Shown here: positions 15,059 to 43,893 of the stretch, piece by piece
How the letters are laid out: each line of letters begins with the position of its first letter
How positions within the stretch are numbered: the stretch's first letter is position 1
DNA from: a virus
Taxonomy: Duplodnaviria > Caudoviricetes
Strand: one strand, 5' to 3'
Length of the DNA stretch: 43,903 nucleotides
Virus record (IMG/VR): IMGVR_UViG_3300027271_000001
Coordinates: 1-43,903 of that record
Notes under the pieces: generated by a model
The model's database searches: none
Told to the model about the DNA's origin: nothing
What the model saw: only the letters and a program-made list of their open reading frames with translations
Translations under genes and position numbers: made by a program

Positions 15059-15301
15059 ATGAACCAGATCAGCCACCTACTCAAGCTCGCGGACGCGTAC
15101 ATCGAGGCAACCTCCATCAAGGAGGTGACCTTGAGCCACCGTCTTTTTGGAGACAGCAAAAAAATCGGCGCAATGAGGGCCGGTGCTGACATCACGATCA
15201 GCCGGTTCAACAGCGCGATCAGATGGTTTTCCGACAATTGGCCGGATGGTGCTGACTGGCCTGAGCAGATTATGCGTCCTGCCTCGGAGAACGCGGCATG
15301 A
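15059..15301 (+). CDS. Cro-like regulator
   Basis: 80 aa, divergent from cI; TLSHRLFGDSKKI...WFSDNWP. Confidence 0.8.
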   Translation: MNQISHLLKLADAYIEATSIKEVTLSHRLFGDSKKIGAMRAGADITISRFNSAIRWFSDNWPDGADWPEQIMRPASENAA

Positions 15302-16092
15302 TCGAGTTCCAGCAAACACAGCAGCAAGCCGCCGTCATTCCGTTCAACGAGAATTCGCTCACCGGACTGGTGAAGCGCGCGGCAACGCAGCTTGCGAGCG
15401 CTTCCAGTGCTGCCGAGGTGTTGGAAGCGAAGGATGCCGCATCGGTCGCCTACGACGCTTCTAAGAAAGCGGCGCGGCTCGCAAAGGTAAAAGGCGCTCA
15501 CGATGAGGTAGTCGCCAAGGCGCACCGCGCACAGGCTGATGCTCTTGAGATCGAAGCCGCAGCGAAGCGCCGTCTGGCCGACGAATACGATGCGGCGCAG
15601 GAGCGAGGGGAGATTGGCAAGCGTGGTGACTACGGCGTCGTAAGTTCCAAAAGGGAACTTACGCCTGCGACTGCTTCCGACCTTGGCCTTTCCCGAAAGG
15701 AAGTCCACGAAGCCCGCCAAATCAGGGACGCCGAAAAGGTGGAACCTGGCATCACGCGGCGCATCCTCGACAGCCGCCTCAAAGCGAAGCAGGAGCCGAC
15801 AAAGGCCGCGCTGCGCGAAGCGGTAATGGAAGCCGCCAAGCAGGGCATTCGCGGTGATCCCGCTCCGAACCGAAAGAACCCCCACTACAAAGCCCCGTCG
15901 AAGGCTGGCGCTGCGTGGACGCATGTCTACGGCACCTGCCGCGCTCTCGCGGAATGGGCAACGGACGAAAATTTGCTGCTCGCCCTGCATGGTCTGCATG
16001 AGCGCACCGACGATCAGGCCGCGAATATCGCCGCTGTCCAGAAGGCTGTCGCCACCCTCAACAAGTTTCTCGGAGACATCAATGCTCACTGA
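15298..16092 (+). CDS. Hypothetical coiled-coil/HTH protein
   Basis: RRLADEYDAAQERGE...DLGLSRKEVHEAR; ATGA coupling to cro. Confidence 0.75.
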   Translation: MIEFQQTQQQAAVIPFNENSLTGLVKRAATQLASASSAAEVLEAKDAASVAYDASKKAARLAKVKGAHDEVVAKAHRAQADALEIEAAAKRRLADEYDAAQERGEIGKRGDYGVVSSKRELTPATASDLGLSRKEVHEARQIRDAEKVEPGITRRILDSRLKAKQEPTKAALREAVMEAAKQGIRGDPAPNRKNPHYKAPSKAGAAWTHVYGTCRALAEWATDENLLLALHGLHERTDDQAANIAAVQKAVATLNKFLGDINAH

Positions 16093-19355: not shown

Positions 19356-21146
19356 ATGAACCTGCTGGGGATCCAGATGCAGAAGATCAGAAAACCGAAA
19401 AAGATGCTCGTTGCCGACCTGCTTTGTGGTGCTGGCGGTTCTTCCACGGGAGCATCGCGCGCCTTGGCTGAACTCGGCCTCGATATGGAACTGGTATGTG
19501 TCAATCACTGGCCGACAGCGATCGACACCCATCAACGCAATCATCCAGAAGCACGGCACTACGTACAGGACATTGCCACTGTCCGTCCGCACCTTCTCGT
19601 GCCCGAAGGCTATCTCGACCTGTTGATGGCCTCGCCAACCTGCACCCACCACAGCGTGGCGCGCGGTGGCAAGCCGACCAGCGACCAGCAGCGTTCCGAT
19701 CCTTGGCACATTATCACGTGGCTCACTGAACTCCGTGTGAAGCGGATTATCATCGAGAACGTCTGGGAGTTCACAAGCTGGGGGCCGGTGGATCGCCGCA
19801 CAGGCAGGCCGATCAAGAGCCGCAAGGGCGAATATTTCCTTGCGTGGATCGAGACGCTGAAAAGGCTTGGCTTCGATCCGGAATGGCGAAAGCTCAATGC
19901 CGCTGATTACGGAGATGCCACCACGCGCCAGCGCTTCATTCTGATGGCGCGTTCGGACGGGCGAAAAGTCCACTGGCCGATGCCGACGCATCGCAAGCGG
20001 ACTGATGTGAAAGGAGAACTTTTCTCTGACGCGAAGCCATGGCGCCCAGCTCGGGAAATCATCGACTGGTCTATCAAGGGCAGGTCGATCTTCAACAGAA
20101 AGAAAGCTCTCGCACCCAAGACGCTCATGCGCATCTATGCAGGGGCGGTGAAGCACAAGTGGCCTGAGCCGTTTATTGTTGTGCTTCGCAATCATATGGC
20201 CGCACAGGGGCTTGATGTGCCTCTGCCGACAATTGCGGCGAACGGTCAGCGCATCGCGCTTGCGGAGCCCGTTATCATGAATGGGCGGAAGGGGAACCAG
20301 GCAAAGGCGGTCTCAACCGAGCCTGCCCCGACACTCGATACCAAGGGCGGTGTTTGGCTGGCGGAGCCGATGGTTCTTTCACAACACAACAGCGGAGCCG
20401 CGCGCTCGGCAAGTGATCCTTTGCCAACCATCACCACCGGTGGCGCCGGGACCGAAGTGCGTCCCGGCTGCGCAAGACCAATGCTGGTCACAGTCGCGCA
20501 TGGAACGGATGCCCGCGACAAAGACCCATACACTCGACGCGCACACGACATCGAAGACCCGTTGGGCACCGTGCATGGTGATGGCAGTTCATATGCAGTC
20601 GTTGAGCCGTTCGTGTTGTCGCAAGCATCTGGCGGTGCGCCCCGTGCGGTTTCAGAGCCCTTGCCAACGTCCACAACGGGTGGGGCTGGCGGGGCTCATG
20701 CGCTGGTCTCAGTCTATTACGGTTCTGGCAACGGCGAAGTTTGCCAAAGCGCGGATGAACCGCTGCCGACCGCGACCGCCCGAAACCGTTTCGGCGTCGT
20801 CGTTCCGGTCACACACAGCCAGGGTGGGAACGGAAGCCGCTCCGTTGATGAACCCATCCCAACCATCACAACGGCAAAAGGTGGCGAGTTTGCGCTGGCC
20901 GAGGCGTTTGATGGATACGACATCCTTTTCCGAATGCTGGAGCCGCACGAACTGGCGTCTGCGATGGGTTTCAATACCGAAGACCAGCAGTACGAATTCG
21001 CCGGCACCAAGACCGACAAGATAAAGCAGATCGGCAATGCGGTTTCTGTTGCGAAAATGAAGGCGTGCGTCGGTGCGATCATGGCCGATGCCGCCCCGAA
21101 AGAGATCGCGAAATGTGATGCCGAGTTCATGGAGGCGGCGGAATGA
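19356..21146 (+). CDS. C5 cytosine DNA methyltransferase
   Basis: DLLCGAGG (I), SPTC (IV), IENV (VI), TTRQRF (VIII), QIGNAV (X). Confidence 0.93.
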   Translation: MNLLGIQMQKIRKPKKMLVADLLCGAGGSSTGASRALAELGLDMELVCVNHWPTAIDTHQRNHPEARHYVQDIATVRPHLLVPEGYLDLLMASPTCTHHSVARGGKPTSDQQRSDPWHIITWLTELRVKRIIIENVWEFTSWGPVDRRTGRPIKSRKGEYFLAWIETLKRLGFDPEWRKLNAADYGDATTRQRFILMARSDGRKVHWPMPTHRKRTDVKGELFSDAKPWRPAREIIDWSIKGRSIFNRKKALAPKTLMRIYAGAVKHKWPEPFIVVLRNHMAAQGLDVPLPTIAANGQRIALAEPVIMNGRKGNQAKAVSTEPAPTLDTKGGVWLAEPMVLSQHNSGAARSASDPLPTITTGGAGTEVRPGCARPMLVTVAHGTDARDKDPYTRRAHDIEDPLGTVHGDGSSYAVVEPFVLSQASGGAPRAVSEPLPTSTTGGAGGAHALVSVYYGSGNGEVCQSADEPLPTATARNRFGVVVPVTHSQGGNGSRSVDEPIPTITTAKGGEFALAEAFDGYDILFRMLEPHELASAMGFNTEDQQYEFAGTKTDKIKQIGNAVSVAKMKACVGAIMADAAPKEIAKCDAEFMEAAE

Positions 21147-29013: not shown

Positions 29014-30483
29014 ATGAAAATCTTCGCTCTCTGCGGAGCCCTTGCGCTTGCGCTCGTGGCCGCCGCTTTCCATGGCGTCCTGCCTGCAAGTGAGCTTGCG
29101 CAGCACGCATCCACTTTCCTCGGTGACGGGGGAACTCTTTCGGCCATGGGACTAGCTGCCATTGGCCACCGAAACATGCCGCGGGCTTCCCTCGCGGCCC
29201 TGATGGCTGCGCGACCCGCCGGTGTGATCGGCGCCCCGCGCAACGAAGCAAACCCCGGCAAGATCGAGGAACTGCTGAAGGACGTGAAGCAGGAACTGAC
29301 GCGCATCAGCGATGATGTGAAGAAGACTGCCGAGGACGCCCTGAACCAGACCAAGGATCAGGGGAAGACCACCGACGAGTTGAAGCACAAGGCAGACGAG
29401 CTGCTGACCAACCAGAAGGCACTCACCGACGCCCAGCAGAAGCTCACCGACAAGCTGGAAGCGCTGGAAACGCGCAACCAGGATCTGGAGCAGAAGCTTG
29501 CTTCCGGTCGCAACGGTCCCGGCGACGAGCGCAAGAGCTTCGGCGAAGAGGTCGCCAATCACGAGCAGATGCGTGCCTTCGCGTCCAATGGCTGCAAAGG
29601 TACGATGCGCATCGCTCTCCCGGTCAAGCAGGCAATTACGTCTGTGAAGCCGGGCGGTGGCGGCCTGATCTGGTCGGATCGCGAAACGGCAATCGTCGGC
29701 ATTCCGATGCGGCAGATGACGATCCGCAACCTGCTCACGCAGGGCCGTACCGGGTCTAACGCGATCGAGTATGCCCGGCAGACGACCCGCACCAACAATG
29801 CGGCGATGGTCTCTGAAGGCGTCCAGAAGCCGGAATCCACCTACGCCTGGGACCAGGCGACGGTGAACGTCCGCACGATCGCTCACTGGGTGCATGTCTC
29901 CCGGCAGGCGATGGAAGATGCTGGCCAGCTTCAGACCGAGATCGACAGCGAGCTTCGCTACGGTCTCATGCTGAAGGAGGAGGAGCAGCTTCTGAAGGGC
30001 GACGGCACCGGTCAGAACCTGTCCGGTCTGGTTACCGAAGCGACGGCCTACTCGGCGGCGTTCGCGGTGACGGGCGAAACGATGATCGACACCATGCGCC
30101 TGGCGCTTCTGCAGGCTTCGCTAGCCGAATACCCGGCGGACGGCATCGTCCTTCATCCCACGGACTGGGCACGCATCGAACTGACGAAGGATGGCGAGTT
30201 CCGCTACATCTTCGCCAACGTGATGCAGATGGCCGGACCGCAGATGTGGGGCCGTCCGGTGGTGGACACCCAGGCGATGGACGAGGACGAATTCCTTGTC
30301 GGCGCCTTCCGCATGGCCGCGACGATCTACGACCGGATGGATCCGGAAGTGATCGCATCGTCCGAGGACCGCGACAACTTCGTCAAGAACATGATCACGG
30401 TTCGCGCCGAGGAGCGTCTTGCTCTCGCGGTGAAGCGCCCGGCCGCCCTGATCACGGGCGATTTCGGCAACGTTTCCGGCTGA
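29014..30483 (+). CDS. HK97-fold major capsid protein with N-terminal delta domain
   Basis: Coiled-coil delta domain; EGVQKPES, TIAHW...SRQ, GDGTGQNLSG, FVKNMITVRAEERLAL. Confidence 0.95.
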   Translation: MKIFALCGALALALVAAAFHGVLPASELAQHASTFLGDGGTLSAMGLAAIGHRNMPRASLAALMAARPAGVIGAPRNEANPGKIEELLKDVKQELTRISDDVKKTAEDALNQTKDQGKTTDELKHKADELLTNQKALTDAQQKLTDKLEALETRNQDLEQKLASGRNGPGDERKSFGEEVANHEQMRAFASNGCKGTMRIALPVKQAITSVKPGGGGLIWSDRETAIVGIPMRQMTIRNLLTQGRTGSNAIEYARQTTRTNNAAMVSEGVQKPESTYAWDQATVNVRTIAHWVHVSRQAMEDAGQLQTEIDSELRYGLMLKEEEQLLKGDGTGQNLSGLVTEATAYSAAFAVTGETMIDTMRLALLQASLAEYPADGIVLHPTDWARIELTKDGEFRYIFANVMQMAGPQMWGRPVVDTQAMDEDEFLVGAFRMAATIYDRMDPEVIASSEDRDNFVKNMITVRAEERLALAVKRPAALITGDFGNVSG

Positions 30484-30547
30484 TCGATCGGCTCATCACG
30501 GGGAGCGGCTTCCGGGCCGCTCTCTCCATGAACCGAAGGAGAGAGCC

Positions 30548-30808
30548 ATGCAGATCAAACCACTTCGCAGCATGGTCGGTAGCTATGGCAAGATCCGAAA
30601 AGGTATTGAGGCCACGGTTGACGATCATATCGCGCAGCAGCTTGTGAGGCGCGGCGTAGCTGTTCCTGCCCAGACCGGGGAGGGAGCTAAGCAGGCATCC
30701 GCGCGCCCTTCGAAGGATGCCCGCCATGGTGGCCGGACTGGAGGCGGAAAACAGTCGTCATCGTTGCCGGGGGCCCAAGCGTCGAAGGCCAGCCGCTCGA
30801 CCAGGTGA
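30548..30808 (+). CDS. Small post-capsid head-associated protein
   Basis: MQIKPLRSMVGSYGKIRKG...AQQLVRRGVA; AAGGAG RBS; position right after the capsid gene. Confidence 0.75.
   Translation: MQIKPLRSMVGSYGKIRKGIEATVDDHIAQQLVRRGVAVPAQTGEGAKQASARPSKDARHGGRTGGGKQSSSLPGAQASKASRSTR
30704..30710 (+). other. Candidate -1 frameshift site CGC-CCT-T
   Basis: Lies inside the only window (after TAA 30688-30690) that gives access to the start-less TVVIVAGGPS motif in the -1 frame. Confidence 0.6.
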
Positions 30809-31329
30809 ATGGCCGCGCCAAGGTTATTGCTATCAATAACTCCTGGCAGCTCGTGCCATGGGCAGACATCCTCTATGCCTGCGACTTCGCATGGTGGGAG
30901 AGATATCGGGGCGTGCCTGAGTTTGAAGGGCTGAAGTTGTCCGTGGATGCCTCTGCATGCCGAAGGCCGTGGGGCATTCAGAAAGTCGGCTTGAACAAGC
31001 ATGATGATGGTCTTGAGCTTATGAAGCTTGGAACTGTTGGGTGGGCTGGAAACTCCGGCTTTCACTGCCTGAATCTCGCGGTTCAGATGTGGCCGGCCAA
31101 GATCATTCTCGTCGGCTTCGACATGCGCGTTGACCTCGGGCTTCATTGGCATGGACCGCACAAAGGCTTGAACAATCCTTCGCAGCGGAATGTGGAACGC
31201 TGGCGGCGCTGCATGGATGCTGTGGCCGGCGCAATTCGCGAGTTCGGCATTGAGGTTATTAATGCCAGCCCAACCTCCGCTCTCAAAAACTATCCAAAGA
31301 TGGGACTTATGGAGGCGATGGAATGCTGA
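30709..31329 (+). CDS. Sialyltransferase/Maf-like glycosyltransferase domain, probably expressed as a frameshift fusion
   Basis: Frame open from 30691: WPDWRRKTVVIVAGGPSV...VIAINN...NSGFHCLNLA...KIILVGFDM...HWHG, paralleling the CstII/GT42 motif order. Confidence 0.65.
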   Translation, partial: FEGCPPWWPDWRRKTVVIVAGGPSVEGQPLDQVNGRAKVIAINNSWQLVPWADILYACDFAWWERYRGVPEFEGLKLSVDASACRRPWGIQKVGLNKHDDGLELMKLGTVGWAGNSGFHCLNLAVQMWPAKIILVGFDMRVDLGLHWHGPHKGLNNPSQRNVERWRRCMDAVAGAIREFGIEVINASPTSALKNYPKMGLMEAMEC

Positions 31330-31892
31330 TCAGGCTCTCCGTTCCTGCTGCTCTTGCCGTGCCTCTTGCAGACGTAAAGCTCGCGCTGCGCATCGATTTC
31401 GATGATGACGATGATCGGCTCGAAAGCCTGATCTCGGCAGAGACACAGCGTTATGAGGATTTCACTGGACGCATCATGGCACCAGTGGATCTGGAGTATC
31501 GCTTTGACCGCTGGGGTGATCCGCTGTGCATCCCCGTGGCGCCGGTTCGGGAAGTGACCGAGGTTGTCTATCTCGACAGCGCCAATGTGGAACAGACGGT
31601 TCCCGCATCGGACTGGTACAGCCTCACAACCGATGAAGGCGTTGAAGTCTGGTTCAATGACACGTTTTCCATCCCGACACTGACCACGCGAGGGCAGGCG
31701 GTACGGGTTCGGTTCCGTGCCGGATATGACCAGCCGAACGCGAGCGGTTCGGGTGACGATCCTGAGCTCGCTTCAAACGCGGTTGATCGCATCAACATCA
31801 TTCGGATGGTGCAGTGCATTTATGATCTCGATGAACTGATGCCGGATATTGAGATGATCCGTACGATGGGCAACCGGAGGATTTTCCGTTGA
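31323..31892 (+). CDS. Head-tail connector (gp6-like)
   Basis: VPLADVKLALRID..DDD...LI; VRVRFRAGY. Confidence 0.88.
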   Translation: MLIRLSVPAALAVPLADVKLALRIDFDDDDDRLESLISAETQRYEDFTGRIMAPVDLEYRFDRWGDPLCIPVAPVREVTEVVYLDSANVEQTVPASDWYSLTTDEGVEVWFNDTFSIPTLTTRGQAVRVRFRAGYDQPNASGSGDDPELASNAVDRINIIRMVQCIYDLDELMPDIEMIRTMGNRRIFR

Positions 31893-32419
31893 TCCATCCA
31901 GAGGCCGCCATCCATCCCCAAGCGCTGGTCGATGGCGTCACTATTGGCGCGCGCACCGTGGTCTGGCAATTCGCCACTGTGATCCTTGGCACGAGGATCG
32001 GAGAGGATTGCAGTGTTGGCGCTGGCGCCGTTCTTTCCGGGCCGCGCTTCGGGAACCGGTGCAAGATCAGCTCCGGCGTTGTGATGGGCCCCGGCTTCTG
32101 GATCGGTGACGACGTATTTGTCGGGCCGAATGTCGTTCTGGCCAATGACATGTGGCCGGAGGTTTCGACGGAAGGCTATGACGACGCGCGGTTGCGTGGT
32201 GGAAAGCGCTTCGCAGTTATGATCGAGGATGGTGTTTCCATTGGTGCGAATGCCGTTGTTCTGCCAGGCGTGCGGGTGGGTAAGGGAAGCGTGATCGCGG
32301 CGGGCGCGGTGGTGGATCGCAATGTTCCAGACGGTTTCTTGTTCCGGCGCAATGGATATCTGAGCGAGGTGCCGCAGGATCGTCGCCAGAAACGTATGAG
32401 GCTGGTCGATCAATGCTGA
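31889..32419 (+). CDS. Left-handed beta-helix sugar acyltransferase (WxcM/WbpD-like)
   Basis: Hexapeptide repeats; IGDDVFVGPNVVLAND; SIGANAVVLPGVRVGKGSVIAAGAVV. Confidence 0.88.
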   Translation: MIHPEAAIHPQALVDGVTIGARTVVWQFATVILGTRIGEDCSVGAGAVLSGPRFGNRCKISSGVVMGPGFWIGDDVFVGPNVVLANDMWPEVSTEGYDDARLRGGKRFAVMIEDGVSIGANAVVLPGVRVGKGSVIAAGAVVDRNVPDGFLFRRNGYLSEVPQDRRQKRMRLVDQC

Positions 32420-33027
32420 CCGTCTGCACGCTGCTTTGGGATGCGAACAGCCGTTCCCGTGATTTCTCGCGCATGTATGACGAGGAATGGGTGCACAAGC
32501 TCTATCGGGGCTTCCGGCGCAATCTGACTGTGCCGTTCCGCTTCGTGTGCTTCACGGATCGGCCGCGCATCTTCGATCCCGGTATTGAGCAGGATGCCAT
32601 TCTTGCCAAACGCCCTGACTACGGCGCATGCATCGAAGCTTACCGCACAGACGGACCCATGATCCTTGCAGGTCTGGATACCGTGATCGTGGGCAACATC
32701 GATCATCTGGCGACATGGTGCGAGAAGGCGGGCGTGCAGGCGCTACCGCGCGATCCCTATCACCCTCGCGTTGCCTGCAATGGTGTGGCGCTTGTTCCGC
32801 GTGGCTGGACGCGCATCGCCCACCAGCACAAAGGCGAGAATGACATGGAGTGGGTACGCCAGTTTCCGCACCGCTTCATTGATGATCTCTTCCCCGGCGA
32901 GGTGGTGAGCTTCAAGGGGCATGTGAAGAAGCGCGGGCTGGGCAACGCCCGCATCGTTTATTTCCACGGGCAAGAGAAGCCGCACCAGTTGCCAAGCATT
33001 GGTTGGATCAAGGAGCACTGGATCTGA
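32413..33027 (+). CDS. GT-A fold glycosyltransferase-like protein
   Basis: YDEEWVHKL...RNL...FVCFTD; GLDTVIVGNID (DxD region); IVYFHGQEKPH. Confidence 0.8.
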   Translation: MLTVCTLLWDANSRSRDFSRMYDEEWVHKLYRGFRRNLTVPFRFVCFTDRPRIFDPGIEQDAILAKRPDYGACIEAYRTDGPMILAGLDTVIVGNIDHLATWCEKAGVQALPRDPYHPRVACNGVALVPRGWTRIAHQHKGENDMEWVRQFPHRFIDDLFPGEVVSFKGHVKKRGLGNARIVYFHGQEKPHQLPSIGWIKEHWI

Positions 33028-34658: not shown

Positions 34659-35018
34659 ATGGCCAATCCACATCGCGGGCAAGTCGCCATAACCGTTGGC
34701 GACTTGGAGCTCACGCTGTCATTTTCAGTCAATGCGATCTGCGAGTTGGAAGATGCTCTCGATCTTCCAGTATCCAAGATCGCAGAGAAACTGAATGACC
34801 CCGAAAACTTGCGCATGTCGCTGGTTCGCACCGTGATCTGGGCGGCCCTGCAGGATTCGCATCCAGAGATTGACATGCAGACGGCCGGGAATATCGCAAC
34901 CGTGGCCGGCACTGCGAAGATCATGGAGAAGGTCGGAGAGGCCTTTCAGATCGCATTCCCAGATGCTCAGAAGGGCGGTGCATCACGCCCTCGGCGGGCG
35001 CCAGCAGCGAAGATATAG
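34659..35018 (+). CDS. Tail assembly chaperone (gpG-like)
   Basis: MANPHRGQV...LSFSVNAICELE; between tail tube and tape measure genes. Confidence 0.85.
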   Translation: MANPHRGQVAITVGDLELTLSFSVNAICELEDALDLPVSKIAEKLNDPENLRMSLVRTVIWAALQDSHPEIDMQTAGNIATVAGTAKIMEKVGEAFQIAFPDAQKGGASRPRRAPAAKI

Positions 35019-35314
35019 ACTGGCTGGCGCTGCTCACGTCATGGGTAGAGGCAGGGCAAGAGCCTTCCCTTTTCTGGTCTCTCACGCTTCGCGAAATCAA
35101 CGCCATCCTAGCCGGTTGCGCAAATCGACTGAAAAGGCAACGGAACGAGAGTGCCTGGATGAGCTGGCATATCGCCGCCATGACGCGGGTGAAGAAAATG
35201 CCAAAGCTCAAAGACTTGATGGCGGGCGAGAAGAGGCCGCCACGTCGGCAATCAATCGATGAGCAAATCGCTATCGCCAAGCAATGGACGATAGCCCTTT
35301 CCCGAAAGAGGTAG
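34988..35314 (+). CDS. Tail assembly chaperone extension (gpT-like), -1 frame, no own start
   Basis: IDWLALLTSWVEAGQEPSLFWSLTLREI...KKMPKLKDL; stops 4 bp before the tape measure gene; absent from the ORF track. Confidence 0.8.
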   Translation, partial: PSAGASSEDIDWLALLTSWVEAGQEPSLFWSLTLREINAILAGCANRLKRQRNESAWMSWHIAAMTRVKKMPKLKDLMAGEKRPPRRQSIDEQIAIAKQWTIALSRKR

Positions 35315-38881: not shown

Positions 38882-40413
38882 TGCCCGGTCTTGGCGCCTC
38901 TCTGGCCTTCTCCCTGATTTTCGGCCTTGGCATTACGGGCGGCGCGGCGGTGACCGCGATCACAACGGCGGGCGTCATTCTCGGCTATGCCGCACCCCTG
39001 GCGCTGGCCATCGGCTCGCAGGCCTATCAGTTGAACAAGGCTCGGAAGAATATCTCGCCCACAAACGACCCGAATGGCATCCAGCAAATTCTCAAGCAGA
39101 GCATCCCGCCGCAGCGCCTCATTCTCGGACGGGCCACCACGGGCGGCGCTCTGTTCTTCTACCGGGCAAAGAAGCCTTACATCTGGTACGGCATCTTGCT
39201 CGCGGCGCATGAGGTCGACGGCTTCGAAAACCTGTTCATCAATGGACACACCGTATTCATCGGGCCGGACGGCTTTGCGACTTCCGAGCCGTTCCGTGAC
39301 GGCACGCGCAAATATATCGAGGTCAGCTTCAGGAACGGCACAATCGATCAGGCAATTGACCCGATCATCGCCCGCGACTTCCCCGACATGCCAGCGACCT
39401 TCCGGCAGCGTGGTCACGCAACCATCGTGATCAAGGCGCATTTCGGCTTTGGGGATGACTATGAGGCCAAGGTCGAGGATCACAAGCGCGTCTATGGCGA
39501 TCAGGGTTCGCTCAGCCCGCTTGTCCGCCTGCGCGGTGCACGGATGCCCGATCTCAGGAAACCGGGCGTTTCGCTTGGTGCCCCATCCACATGGATATGG
39601 ACGGACAACGCGCCACTCTGCCTTGCCAAATATCTCACACATCAATGGCCGGATACGCAGCTCATATCGCCCGACCGCCTCGATTGGGACGCATTCATGC
39701 TGGCGGCGGATGAGGCCGATCGGTGGGAGACTTCGAAGGATGGCACCACATTTCACCGGCACACGGTCAACGGTGTGGTGCAATCGACCGACGATCCCTG
39801 GGACGTGATCGAGAATTTCAAGGTGGCTATGGGTGGCCATGTGATCGTGGAGCGGGGAAAGGTCTATCCCATCATCCGCGCGCGCCGCGAACCAAAGGCC
39901 ACCCTTCACCAGAACATGATTGTCGGCGGGCTGGAATACACCTCTGAGCCGCGCGACCGGGAATTGGTGAATATCGTCAAGCCGACCTTCGTTTCGCCGG
40001 AACGCGAGTTCCAGGAGGTGGAAGGCCCGACACTGCGCCGCGAGGACCTGATTGTTATCGACGGGAAGCCACGCGAAAGCAGCCTCCGCGGCGCCTTCGT
40101 GGAGGATCACCGCCGCATTCAACGGTTCGCCCAGGCGCAGCTTAATTGGGCGAGGGATGGCCGCACGCTTAGCGTAGGCGCCACGATGGAGGCGCTTTCA
40201 TGGACGGTGGGCGAGGTCTATCGCGTTCACCTTCTTGGTGCTCTGGCCCGCGTGAATGGGCTTTATGAACTCGTTTCCAAGGATTGGGATGACCGCATGG
40301 GCGGCTACAAGCTGCATTTCATCGGATACGACCCGGCTGCGACCGATTTCGATCCGCAGGACGAGCAAGATTTCACCATCGATGAAGACGTGTTGGAGGC
40401 AGAGGCCGCATGA
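38881..40413 (+). CDS. Tail tip/hub protein (gpJ/Tal-like)
   Basis: PQRLILGR..TGG; WTDNAPLCL; NGVV. Confidence 0.75.
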   Translation: MPGLGASLAFSLIFGLGITGGAAVTAITTAGVILGYAAPLALAIGSQAYQLNKARKNISPTNDPNGIQQILKQSIPPQRLILGRATTGGALFFYRAKKPYIWYGILLAAHEVDGFENLFINGHTVFIGPDGFATSEPFRDGTRKYIEVSFRNGTIDQAIDPIIARDFPDMPATFRQRGHATIVIKAHFGFGDDYEAKVEDHKRVYGDQGSLSPLVRLRGARMPDLRKPGVSLGAPSTWIWTDNAPLCLAKYLTHQWPDTQLISPDRLDWDAFMLAADEADRWETSKDGTTFHRHTVNGVVQSTDDPWDVIENFKVAMGGHVIVERGKVYPIIRARREPKATLHQNMIVGGLEYTSEPRDRELVNIVKPTFVSPEREFQEVEGPTLRREDLIVIDGKPRESSLRGAFVEDHRRIQRFAQAQLNWARDGRTLSVGATMEALSWTVGEVYRVHLLGALARVNGLYELVSKDWDDRMGGYKLHFIGYDPAATDFDPQDEQDFTIDEDVLEAEAA

Positions 40414-41663
40414 CGACGCATCTTGAGCAAGCCTTTCCCCTCAACACCAATTGGCCGGCAGCAAACGTCCGTTCCGAGGTCGCGCAGGGCATTGTCGGTG
40501 TGTTCGACACGCCCGATCTTTCCGGCGAGGACTTCACCATCCAGCCTTATGCGGCGATTGGCGTCTATGGCCCGGACGGTGACCTGGTCTTCTATGCTTA
40601 TGATGCCGATGACACGACAACGGCAGATGATGGCGGCACGACTTGCATTGTCGTCTCCGGGCGGCGCTACAAGCGTTCTACCGAACTGACGGTGAAGGAC
40701 GCGGCACTGAGTGCGACGACCAGCGCGCAGCCGGCATCGCCAGCGCTCGGGGACACCTACATCGTGCCGGCGGCGCCCTCCGGAACGGACTGGGCCAGTC
40801 AGGCAGAGACCGTCGCCACGTTCACAGCGCGCGGCTGGATTTTCCGTCAGCCTTATGTGGGCATGGTGGTCTATGTCGAGGATGAGGCCACCTTCTACCA
40901 TTACAATGCCGCTGGCGACTGGCAGCAAGGCTTGCCTCCCGGCGCGCTTCCGGATGGTTCCATCGTTCCGATGAAGCTCTTTGAGCCCTTCGGTATTCTT
41001 GTGGTCGAGGATGAGCGCAATGATCCGCCGGGCGGAACCCCGACCACGGGCAGCCTCTATCAGGTCGGCACGTCTCCCACCGGGGCCTTTGTCGGCCATG
41101 TCGGGGAGATCGCGCGGTTCAACGGTGCAGGTTATGATTTCATCGCTCCGAACGAGGGCAACACGATCTACCGCAAGGATGCCTCGACGCTTTTTTCCTA
41201 CCGCTCCGGCGCGTGGGAACTGACCATCGCCACGGCGGTGCTCAAGTTCTTCAAGATGTATGGGCCAAGTGGTAATGTTGCCTATGCCGACAGCACCACG
41301 CCGACAACCGTTCTGGCGGCCGCGAGCCTATCAGGGGCGGTGGGCGATGTTTGGGAAATCCAGATCAGGGACGGCTATATCCAGGCCAGAAGTTTGCAGG
41401 GCGGGACGCAGAAATGGTTTGAACTCGGGATATATGTCGATGCTGAGAGCTCGCCGCGCCATATCATAGCCTCTGTCCAAACAGCGGAAAGCGTACTGAA
41501 CAGCGACAGCGCTCGCGCGGATAGCTTCTACTACATTTCCGTGGATGACGTCGCCACACACACGTTGAGCGTGAAGGCAAGGCGCACAACAGGCGCAGTG
41601 AGCACAGATAGCCGAATTGCCCGCGCCACCATGAACATTCGCCGCCTGACGCCGTCGGCCTAA
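40410..41663 (+). CDS. Tail fibre/adaptor with two DUF2793-like domains
   Basis: PASPALGDTYIV...W...GW.F..P..G and PPGGTPTTGSLYQV...IARFNG.GY.FIAP.EG. Confidence 0.7.
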   Translation: MTTHLEQAFPLNTNWPAANVRSEVAQGIVGVFDTPDLSGEDFTIQPYAAIGVYGPDGDLVFYAYDADDTTTADDGGTTCIVVSGRRYKRSTELTVKDAALSATTSAQPASPALGDTYIVPAAPSGTDWASQAETVATFTARGWIFRQPYVGMVVYVEDEATFYHYNAAGDWQQGLPPGALPDGSIVPMKLFEPFGILVVEDERNDPPGGTPTTGSLYQVGTSPTGAFVGHVGEIARFNGAGYDFIAPNEGNTIYRKDASTLFSYRSGAWELTIATAVLKFFKMYGPSGNVAYADSTTPTTVLAAASLSGAVGDVWEIQIRDGYIQARSLQGGTQKWFELGIYVDAESSPRHIIASVQTAESVLNSDSARADSFYYISVDDVATHTLSVKARRTTGAVSTDSRIARATMNIRRLTPSA

Positions 41664-41751
41664 ACCAAACCTGAAATCACCATCTGCAGAGCATCGCCGC
41701 GCTTTTCACCAGCGCGCGGTAGCCCTTGCGCATATGTGAGGAAACCCACGC

Positions 41752-43893
41752 ATGCCAATCATCAAGCCCTCGACCGCGTTCAAGCAGAGTGCCGATTGGG
41801 TTTCGGCGGAAGTTCGCGCCTACATGAAAGATCAGGTCTCCACGCATGTGGATACCGTGCAGGATGTGCGCGACAATGATTTTGAGAAATCCCGGTTCAT
41901 CTTCGTCAAGTCGCTGGCGGCGACATTCCGCCTCGATCTTTCCTCGGGTGCAGATGACGATGGCATCAATGTCCTGCATGACAACATCGGTCGGCGGTAT
42001 CTGAAGGTCATTGGGACCGGTTTGGGTGGCGTGGATTTCGACGCGCAGGTGGCCGACCTTGCCGGCAGGGCCGCATATGATGATGAGGCCGAGGGCTTCA
42101 AGGTTCTGGTTTCAGATGTTGGTGATGGGCGCGCGGCCATCTATTCAAAAGACAGTGGCGCATCCGCCGATTGGAGTGATCCGGCCTATGTGACAGGGCC
42201 GCAGGGATCGACCGGCGACATTGGCGGAGTGGCATTCCAGTTCGATGACGGGACCGCAGACGCCAATCCAGGTGCCGGCAACATTCGGGCCAACAACGCC
42301 GATCTGTCCGCCGCGACGACGCTCTTTGTCTCCAAGACTAATCGCTACGGCGACGATCTTTCCGCCTTCCTTGCGTCTCTCGATGACTCCACGAGCTCGC
42401 ACAAGGGATATCTCACGCTCACGGCGCCGGACAGCGAGACCCAAGCGACCTTCAGCATCACCGGACTTACAGACGCTTCCGGCTATGTGAAGCTCACGGT
42501 AGGCGGGCATTCAGGGGCAACGTCGTTCGTTGATGCCGAGCGTTTGGCGTTCCAATTCTCTCGCACTGGCAATGCCGGCGATTTGAATGGTGTGACACCC
42601 GGCCCTACCGGCCTCGAACTTCTTGAGGCAGAGACGGAAGGGGATGCGCGGGATGTGTTGGGACTTGGCCATGTTATTACGCTGCAAATGTTCGGCGGCA
42701 TTGCATCTGATGATGAGGCGGATGCGGCGACGAACAAAACCGCCATCGACGCGGCTATTGATCGCGCCGCGCTCACCGGGAACAAAATCCTTGTCTTGGG
42801 CAAGTTTGTCACGAACGGAGCAATCATTGACGCAAACGTCGAATTCGCAGGGATCAACGGATACTCTCAATTCCGCCTGCCGAACGCCAGCACCGATCAG
42901 ATGTTTATTCTATCTGGTGCGGAACTAAAAGTCCGCTTCAACGGGATTACGTTCAAAGACGAGAGCGGTACCAATGCTTCTGGTGAAAACAGGTCTATTT
43001 TTGATTCTGCTTCGCAGGAAGGGGCTGATGTCGCTTTTCACGATTGCGACTTCATTGGCCTAGCCTGCTATGGCATTCAGTTCTACGGCGTTCCGGGTTC
43101 CGGTGCTGAACGAATTTCCGTAACACGATGCCTCTTTAAGGACGGCGTCGAACATTCCGATACGGTCGATAACTGCAAAAATATCATCATCTTCAACGGT
43201 GCAGATGCTTGGATTGACAGCAATGTGTTCGAGCAGCCTGTTCCCTATCTTGCGTATGGAAGAACAGCGATCACGGTAGGCACATTCTCTGGTTTGGGAG
43301 CAACTTATAGCCGCCTTCATATCGCAAACAATTATGTAATTGGATGCGGGAAAGTGAACAATAGCGCAGGCGGCGCGCTTGGTGCTATCGACAACCATGA
43401 GTATTACGAAGAAACCTTCATCTGCAACAATCGCGTTATCTCTCCGGTGTTCGGTGGGATAAGACAAAAGGCTGACAGTCGCCGCCTCATCATCACAGGC
43501 AACATAGTTCGCGATAAAGTTGGGGACGTCTCATCTGCAAGCATTCAGGTCACGCCAGCGCCGTCCAACTCTGTCGGCAGCGATTACATCATCGCAAACA
43601 ACATTGTTGATGGTTCAAGCGGAGATGGGATTGGGTTGTCAAATGATGTTCTCGACGGGAACGTCATTCGATTATCTGTCACAGACAATATCATCAGCGA
43701 CATGGTTGGTTACGGGATTCGAGTTGACGCCTTCAAGGATTGCGTCGTGCGCGGTAACATAATCGACGGAGGCAATGTGTCCTTGATGGGCATATTCTTT
43801 GACGATGCGGAAGGGTCGATTCTTGTCCAAGGAAATACACTTCGAAATCTGCAAAACGCTTCCTCAGCCAATTATGCTATAGTTCTCCGTTGA
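41752..43893 (+). pseudogene. Tail spike / polysaccharide depolymerase (right-handed beta-helix), truncated by IS3
   Basis: N-terminal anchor, then MFGG...D...AIDAAID entry motif and many I.NN/I.GN parallel beta-helix repeats; its stop codon is the TGA of the IS end. Confidence 0.85.

Follow-up and report, generated by a model that had tools for sequence, protein, structure and literature searches.

Overlapping genes behind the capsid gene and their relatives

The window analysed here, the whole 43,903-nucleotide stretch of viral DNA, carries the gene set of a temperate HK97-type siphophage, with integrase, repressor, terminase, portal, Clp protease, capsid, neck and tail genes. Right behind the capsid gene, an 86-codon gene overlaps the reading frame of an enzyme-like domain that lacks a start of its own, and a sugar-acetyltransferase-like gene and a second glycosyltransferase-like gene follow downstream (Table 1). 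The product of the 86-codon gene consists of a domain of ~42 aa resembling the L9 N-terminal and lambda gpFI C-terminal domains, an Ala/Lys-rich linker, and a tail that is the start of the enzyme read in the other frame. The layout is the same in a Nitratireductor indicus C115 record (L002/L098), where the enzyme (L098) is 100% identical to that of the window. Elsewhere the window encodes a transposase and two DNA methyltransferases (117-1121, 15298-16092 and 19356-21146); at 40410-43893, a protein with tandem DUF2793 domains precedes one of 713 aa that resembles a beta-helix tail spike.

Table 1. Features of the overlap locus and of related genes in the window
Feature	Position	Strand	Basis or remark
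HK97-type major capsid protein	29014..30483	+	Pfam Phage_capsid, E 4e-62; candidate docking partner and acceptor
86-aa post-capsid ORF	30548-30808	+	phrog_2616, E 3.6e-7
Shine-Dalgarno-like GGAGG	30679-30683	+	CCT codon follows at 23 nt; probable stimulator
Upstream stop (TAA) in the enzyme frame	30688-30690	+	ORF reading
Predicted -1 shift site C|CCT (CCU to CCC, tRNA-Pro)	30706..30709	+	45/49 relatives
Start-less Maf/sialyltransferase-fold domain, 206 aa	30709..31329	+	phrog_4603, E 1.6e-58
Hexapeptide sugar-acetyltransferase-like gene	31889..32419	+	Pfam Hexapep, E 1.9e-25; same neck-region cassette as the enzyme
Second glycosyltransferase-like gene	32413..33027	+	phrog_1962, E 3.8e-53
Tail assembly chaperone G/GT pair with C|CCT	34659..35314; site 34988-34991	+	Phage_TAC_11, E 4.9e-8; serves as internal positive control

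Since the enzyme frame is closed by the upstream TAA and open from 30691 to 31329, it can be entered no earlier than 30691. From there no ATG, GTG or TTG occurs in this frame until the called start, GTG at 30805, and ATC at 30697 is the only rarer start codon. The called start lies 33 nt beyond the conserved GPS glycine; starting there would cut off the first strand and the GPS loop, and W-x-P-x-W and GPS are the most conserved part of the enzyme. The small gene reads CGC CCT TCG at 30704-30712, and a -1 move following Pro54 would yield a product of 54 + 206 = 260 aa. The layout, the missing start and the CGC CCT TCG had all been described in the original prediction, and on re-reading the sequence their coordinates were right. 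Contigs X2, X4 and X7, from three studies, span 30400-31400 unbroken and are gapless within both ORFs (three of four runs cover the site; X8 does not reach it), and the overlap is confirmed as a real layout, with no assembly error. In the overlap region it is the enzyme frame that is better conserved (0.79 vs. 0.59), and variation there is third-position-biased (0.84/0.85/0.66).

For comparison, 196 loci were collected in addition to the window, of which 193 including the window could be anchored on the GPS motif (L105, L170, L181 and L188 had no anchor and were left out), and reduction at 90% identity gave 120 representatives. The small domain lies upstream of the enzyme in 50 of these, 49 times in -1 overlap, once in frame and never in +1, a 49:1 ratio that is no unbiased census because the domain profile was seeded from 19 frameshift-type loci and the loci were found via the enzyme. 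It had been argued that a start ahead of the GGPS motif in homologues would speak against recoding. Of the 49 overlap loci, 48 have no normal start (ATG/GTG/TTG) in the last 105 nt ahead of the motif and one has such a start, whereas 52/67 have one among the loci where the small domain is missing (3 of 70 were excluded for having <150 nt upstream); anywhere in the open enzyme frame, such a codon is found in 5/49 frameshift-type loci. By eye, several members of this group without the small domain resemble more divergent frameshift cases. Four loci (L178, L179, L183 and L191) have a different small protein with an RRxDxxAED-type tail that abuts or overlaps the enzyme, and a clear start is absent there.

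Each of the two partners also occurs alone. The enzyme stands alone with its own start in ~51 relatives, and the tag is thus dispensable. Among the best 150 small-domain proteins, 66 carry an other-frame trace of the enzyme start and most of the rest have a charged, low-complexity C-terminal tail, so that the small gene occurs without the enzyme too. A search for longer small-domain proteins returned 23, of 86-140 aa, and no fusions among them. Permanent in-frame fusions were found in six cases, namely locus L013 and 5 of 120 homologous proteins among those listed. The five proteins, with small-domain scores from 28 to 9 bits, form a clade of their own, and fusion has arisen at least twice in all. 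L013 is the sister of the frameshift locus L145 (SH-aLRT 100, in a quick tree without bootstrap), and alignment of their DNA places one extra base in L013 a few nucleotides ahead of the site, which is itself altered. Homologues encoded as a single ORF had been named in advance as evidence against the prediction; they do occur, yet with their small domain kept intact they support the fusion as the functional product.

The enzyme is present in 77 cultured-phage records, and none of the nine record stretches examined has a frameshift annotation. In S20, C|CCT stands directly behind four enzyme-frame stops, and there is no start. Psp6 (L281:1708-2564) has the overlap, no in-frame start and a candidate T TTT TTG heptamer. 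In D3 (L276:2837-3555) and PMG1 (L283), a small gene with a homologous domain (probability 92.8) overlaps the enzyme behind the capsid gene at a C CCA AAG heptamer; because an in-frame GTG lies 66 nt ahead of the motif, both are ambiguous as frameshift cases. The -1 layout was not found in P1 pmgN/pmgO, PAJU2 ORF010 or phiNP, and the P1 and PAJU2 enzymes have their own starts. PAJU2 ORF010 (L277:2986-3555), a stand-alone homologue, is labelled 'structural protein'. In P1, the homologue pmgO is not essential under laboratory conditions (PMC10695390).

The explanation we lean towards is that the 86-codon gene and the start-less enzyme are joined by a minority -1 slip at C|CCT, and that the fusion is brought to the assembling head.

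The two domains of the predicted fusion

The small domain was modelled with a pLDDT of 86 and has the L9 N-terminal fold, which it shares with the C-terminal domain of lambda gpFI as well as with GINS and primase. Its structural scores are middling (Z 6.9 for L9, 6.4 for GINS and 5.3 for gpFI), with L9 and GINS at or above gpFI. The match to the gpFI C-terminal domain (PDB 2lsm) has an rmsd of 1.1 over 41 residues and a TM of 0.72. In lambda, the gene for gpFI is also right behind the capsid gene. In contrast to gpFI, the domain is N-terminal here, identity is 14-17%, and the protein has no DNA-binding domain; the Pfam FI profile matched none of 45 small-domain members at E 0.05, among which the Pfam matches were DUF7302 (10), DUF7210 (6) and L9_N (1). 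Capsid contact and DNA contact are paired in gpFI. The protein bridges capsid and terminase-DNA (PMC13595911). One small-domain relative (P0260) carries a Rho_N/HeH-type domain (E 3e-11), and such relatives may echo gpFI's pairing of the two contacts. In P0175, P0187 and P0260 a C-terminal Rho_N/HeH-like helical domain replaces the enzyme overlap, clearly so for P0260 only. Complex predictions of the capsid protein with the small domain scored 0.00, 0.66 and 0.00 and gave no evidence either way. What speaks for a head-associated small protein is its gene position and a fold common to gpFI but equally to L9 and GINS; the position behind the capsid gene would favour the gpFI reading.

The neighbourhood bears on what the fusion is for. 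Across 80 wide loci (not dereplicated), the head-tail connector is present in 73, the second glycosyltransferase in 54 and the acetyltransferase in 18; the window's acetyltransferase-like product has NeuD/PglB-type matches that fall below the cut-off. Two or three enzyme paralogues occur within a single neck-region cassette in L265, L270, L273 and L275. The strongest rival to delivery at the head is that the frameshift only sets a low, fixed level of enzyme, with a tag that does no targeting and an acceptor other than the head, such as a tail or neck protein, host LPS or flagellin, or even the short product, which is Ser-rich. In its favour, enzymes that stand alone and have a start of their own, located behind the connector, are equally common (52/67), and the best structural match of the enzyme is a flagellin-modifying Maf. 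That the cassette does not leave the head-neck module and that the permanent fusions keep the small domain whole both count against this alternative, which we consider unlikely, though it deserves to be taken seriously.

The enzyme was modelled with a pLDDT of 96.5, and a Maf/CstII-like fold is strongly supported; the original prediction had drawn this parallel from motif order. Its best fold match is the catalytic domain of the Maf flagellin glycosyltransferase (5mu5; Z 15.1, rmsd 3.2, 183 residues aligned), and Foldseek placed the GT42 enzyme CstII first (E 9e-5); further matches were HPPK/MptE (Z 11.5), SteA (Z 11.0), CstI (10.6) and mammalian sialyltransferases (8.2-9.5), with identities of 11-16% across the fold matches and 11-14% to Maf/GT42. 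Unlike the 632-aa multi-domain Maf, the enzyme here is the 206-aa core only. Two residues, D59 and H146, are invariant in 117 sequences. The catalytic acids of Maf 5mu5 are E324 and D415; the fold search gives no residue pairs for the invariant D59. GT42 enzymes have a catalytic histidine near the C-terminal third, of which H146 might be the counterpart.

Sequence profiles gave a different picture from the fold. The enzyme had no CST match in Pfam or NCBIfam, its PHROG label is an annotation only and carries no GT42 profile membership, and its sole Pfam match was MptE-like and below the cut-off (E 1.9e-4). When the enzyme profile was searched against PDB sequences, it found HPPK only (E 0.67) and no Cst at E 1. 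In addition, no nonulosonate synthesis gene was seen among the window ORFs scanned, a subset of all. These results would fit a fusion that is made but whose domain is no glycosyltransferase, being instead pyrophosphokinase-like or a non-catalytic member of the fold, as HPPK/MptE and SteA share the fold and are non-glycosyltransferases. We hold this to be improbable, given that Maf scores above both, that CstII leads the Foldseek matches, that a glycosyltransferase and a sugar acetyltransferase are encoded next to it, and that D59 and H146 do not vary. By fold and neighbourhood, the enzyme appears to resemble a Maf/GT42-type transferase, while profile membership of either family fails.

The probable shift site and its upstream signal

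A conserved CCC-T type site had been predicted, and alignment of homologous loci bore this out. C|CCT is present in the shift phase in 45/49 loci and in the other phases in 1 and 3 loci; counted per codon, it occurs 47 times in 1,361 in the shift windows, vs. 3 in 1,892 in the N-terminal domains of the same genes and 17 in 9,385 in the enzyme bodies. The codon ahead of CCT may be any NNC (8 types) and the codon after it varies. Because the preceding codon is free in this way it should be unable to slip, and re-pairing would be by tRNA-Pro alone. The canonical X XXY YYZ tandem heptamer is not what the window has (G CGC CCT); among the 45 sites, AAACCCT occurs in 8 and GGGCCCT in 4. Four of the 49 loci have no C|CCT, L115 and L190 showing no site at all. 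L139 and L143, sister loci of L148, read GAT CCT TTT in its place, and the shift has possibly moved to the T run there.

The same CGC CCT had been noted in the tail chaperone gene of the window. It is indeed found there, at 34986-34991, where it opens a -1 frame reading a gpT-like domain, and C|CCT is present in all seven distinct tail-chaperone loci matched by the gpT profile (the window, L233, L240, L244, L250, L266 and L275). Seven of 15 distinct tail-chaperone matches, weak-scoring and of other families, have no C|CCT.

The purine run upstream of the site also proved to be a conserved signal. GGAGG occurs 6-34 nt upstream in 31/45 sites against 11.0 +/- 2.7 expected from synonymous resampling, and starts at -28 in 21/45, although these counts overstate independence since related loci share ancestry. 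The best anti-SD pairing at the sites is -8.97, compared with -6.59 +/- 0.33 in resampled sequences (0/200 as low), and GGAGG precedes 1/57 ordinary in-frame C|CCT controls. It is absent at 14/45 sites. At the chaperone sites it lies at -22 in 4/7, the window's own chaperone site being without it. Known SD-like stimulators of -1 shifting are spaced 9-14 nt upstream (PMC5009743), whereas enrichment here peaks at 23 nt and there is none at 9-14 nt. We consider it likely that GGAGG pairs with 16S rRNA and promotes the slip, at a spacing outside the known range.

RNA structure fared less well. The GGCATCC/GGATGCC stem proposed to enclose the site has its arms at 30694-30700 and 30715-30721, and these pair with each other in a 53-nt fold but no longer do so when 111 nt are folded (z +1.35). 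As a conserved signal it was not upheld, with 14/45 sites in such a loop and a mean z of 0.09. For a 3' stem-loop, pseudoknot-free folding gave a mean z of -0.72, no excess over control windows (-0.72 and -0.47), and no conserved 3' hairpin was seen.

A rare-codon start at ATC 30697 behind the purine run, or transcriptional slippage, would dispense with the frameshift. For initiation it can be said that a conserved SD-like motif usually signals a start, that the window has GGAG 10 nt ahead of the in-frame ATC, and that D3 and PMG1 have their GTG. However, any of eight candidate start codons is found in only 14/49 loci, at scattered offsets, a stop falls between GGAGG and the site in several loci (an enzyme-frame stop lies within 15 nt ahead of the site in 12/45), and the C|CCT of 45/49 loci is left unexplained by initiation. 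Slippage would have to act on a C3 run far shorter than the runs known for it (PMC5009743). We judge this class of explanation very improbable. An assembly error or decayed gene, to which the single-base difference between fused L013 and frameshifted L145 might point, is refuted by the concurring independent contigs, the common phase and site in 49 loci of <90% identity and the third-position-biased variation in the enzyme frame.

Proposed role and relation to known recoding

A -1 frameshift at C|CCT is, on the sequence evidence, very probably a real, conserved and apparently undescribed recoding event. Of the original fusion reading, the frameshift itself is thus strongly supported (49/50 small-domain loci overlap in -1 and 45/49 have C|CCT), and the conserved stem is what did not stand. 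In our proposal, a minority of ribosomes would back up one base at C|CCT to make the 260-residue fusion, with the peptidyl-tRNA-Pro, we are confident, re-pairing alone from CCU to CCC. The C-terminal domain is probably a nucleotide-sugar transferase that would use a host CMP-activated donor, e.g. Kdo or a nonulosonate; O-glycosylation of proteins by Maf enzymes uses Neu5Ac or Kdo (10.1101/2020.06.03.131540). The docking step could go either way: here the N-terminal domain would dock on the procapsid like lambda gpFI, the same gene supplying many packaging-chaperone-like copies and few enzyme-bearing ones, which would prime a glycan on head proteins, to be extended by the glycosyltransferase and acetyltransferase encoded nearby. 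The likeliest purpose of the fusion would be to transfer sugar to the head; capsid glycosylation, the donor sugar and the stoichiometry are inference. The fullest version of the proposal is more doubtful than not, and we offer it tentatively: that in HK97-type phages of alphaproteobacteria a prohead-docking domain akin to gpFI serves as an address tag, and that an undescribed -1 signal (a distant GGAGG and a single-tRNA C|CCU slip, common to their tail chaperones) yields a few tagged copies of a Maf-like Kdo/nonulosonate transferase, by which the capsid is glycosylated while it assembles.

The closest known parallel is the lambda-type G/GT chaperone frameshift, which likewise gives an abundant short product and a rare -1 fusion with the N-terminal binding domain in common (PMC5009743). 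The present case differs in belonging to the head module, in appending an enzyme fold and in lacking the X XXY YYZ heptamer at most loci. In the capsid and tail extensions of T7, T3, A2, A118 and PSA, too, recoding gives some copies of a head-module protein an extra domain, in some cases with Pro CCC codons involved; but those extend a major virion protein, often with Ig-like domains, and the Listeria CCC_UGA shifts are +1, whereas here an accessory protein would gain a transferase by a -1 shift (PMC5009743). Virion glycosylation has a precedent in mycobacteriophages, whose capsids are reportedly glycosylated by phage enzymes (Freeman 2023, cited in PMC11256854) and whose phage-encoded glycosyltransferase sets are linked to capsid modification (PMC11256854); their hosts are actinobacterial, and the passage on them in PMC11256854 reports no recoded docking tag. 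A search of mostly open-access literature found neither the event nor a C|CCU -1 signal described, though frameshift surveys may already list such sites. The event appears to be a variant of the G/GT logic.

If this explanation is true, phages would have a second, widespread recoding event, in which a head-module protein is extended by an enzyme instead of a structural domain. Many truncated annotations would be corrected, the window's product being on record as a 174-aa form, and a compact -1 signal would be defined outside the motif set of a current predictor (PMC10885494). An enzyme, a tag and a target would thereby be named for testing virion glycosylation by phages of Gram-negative hosts.
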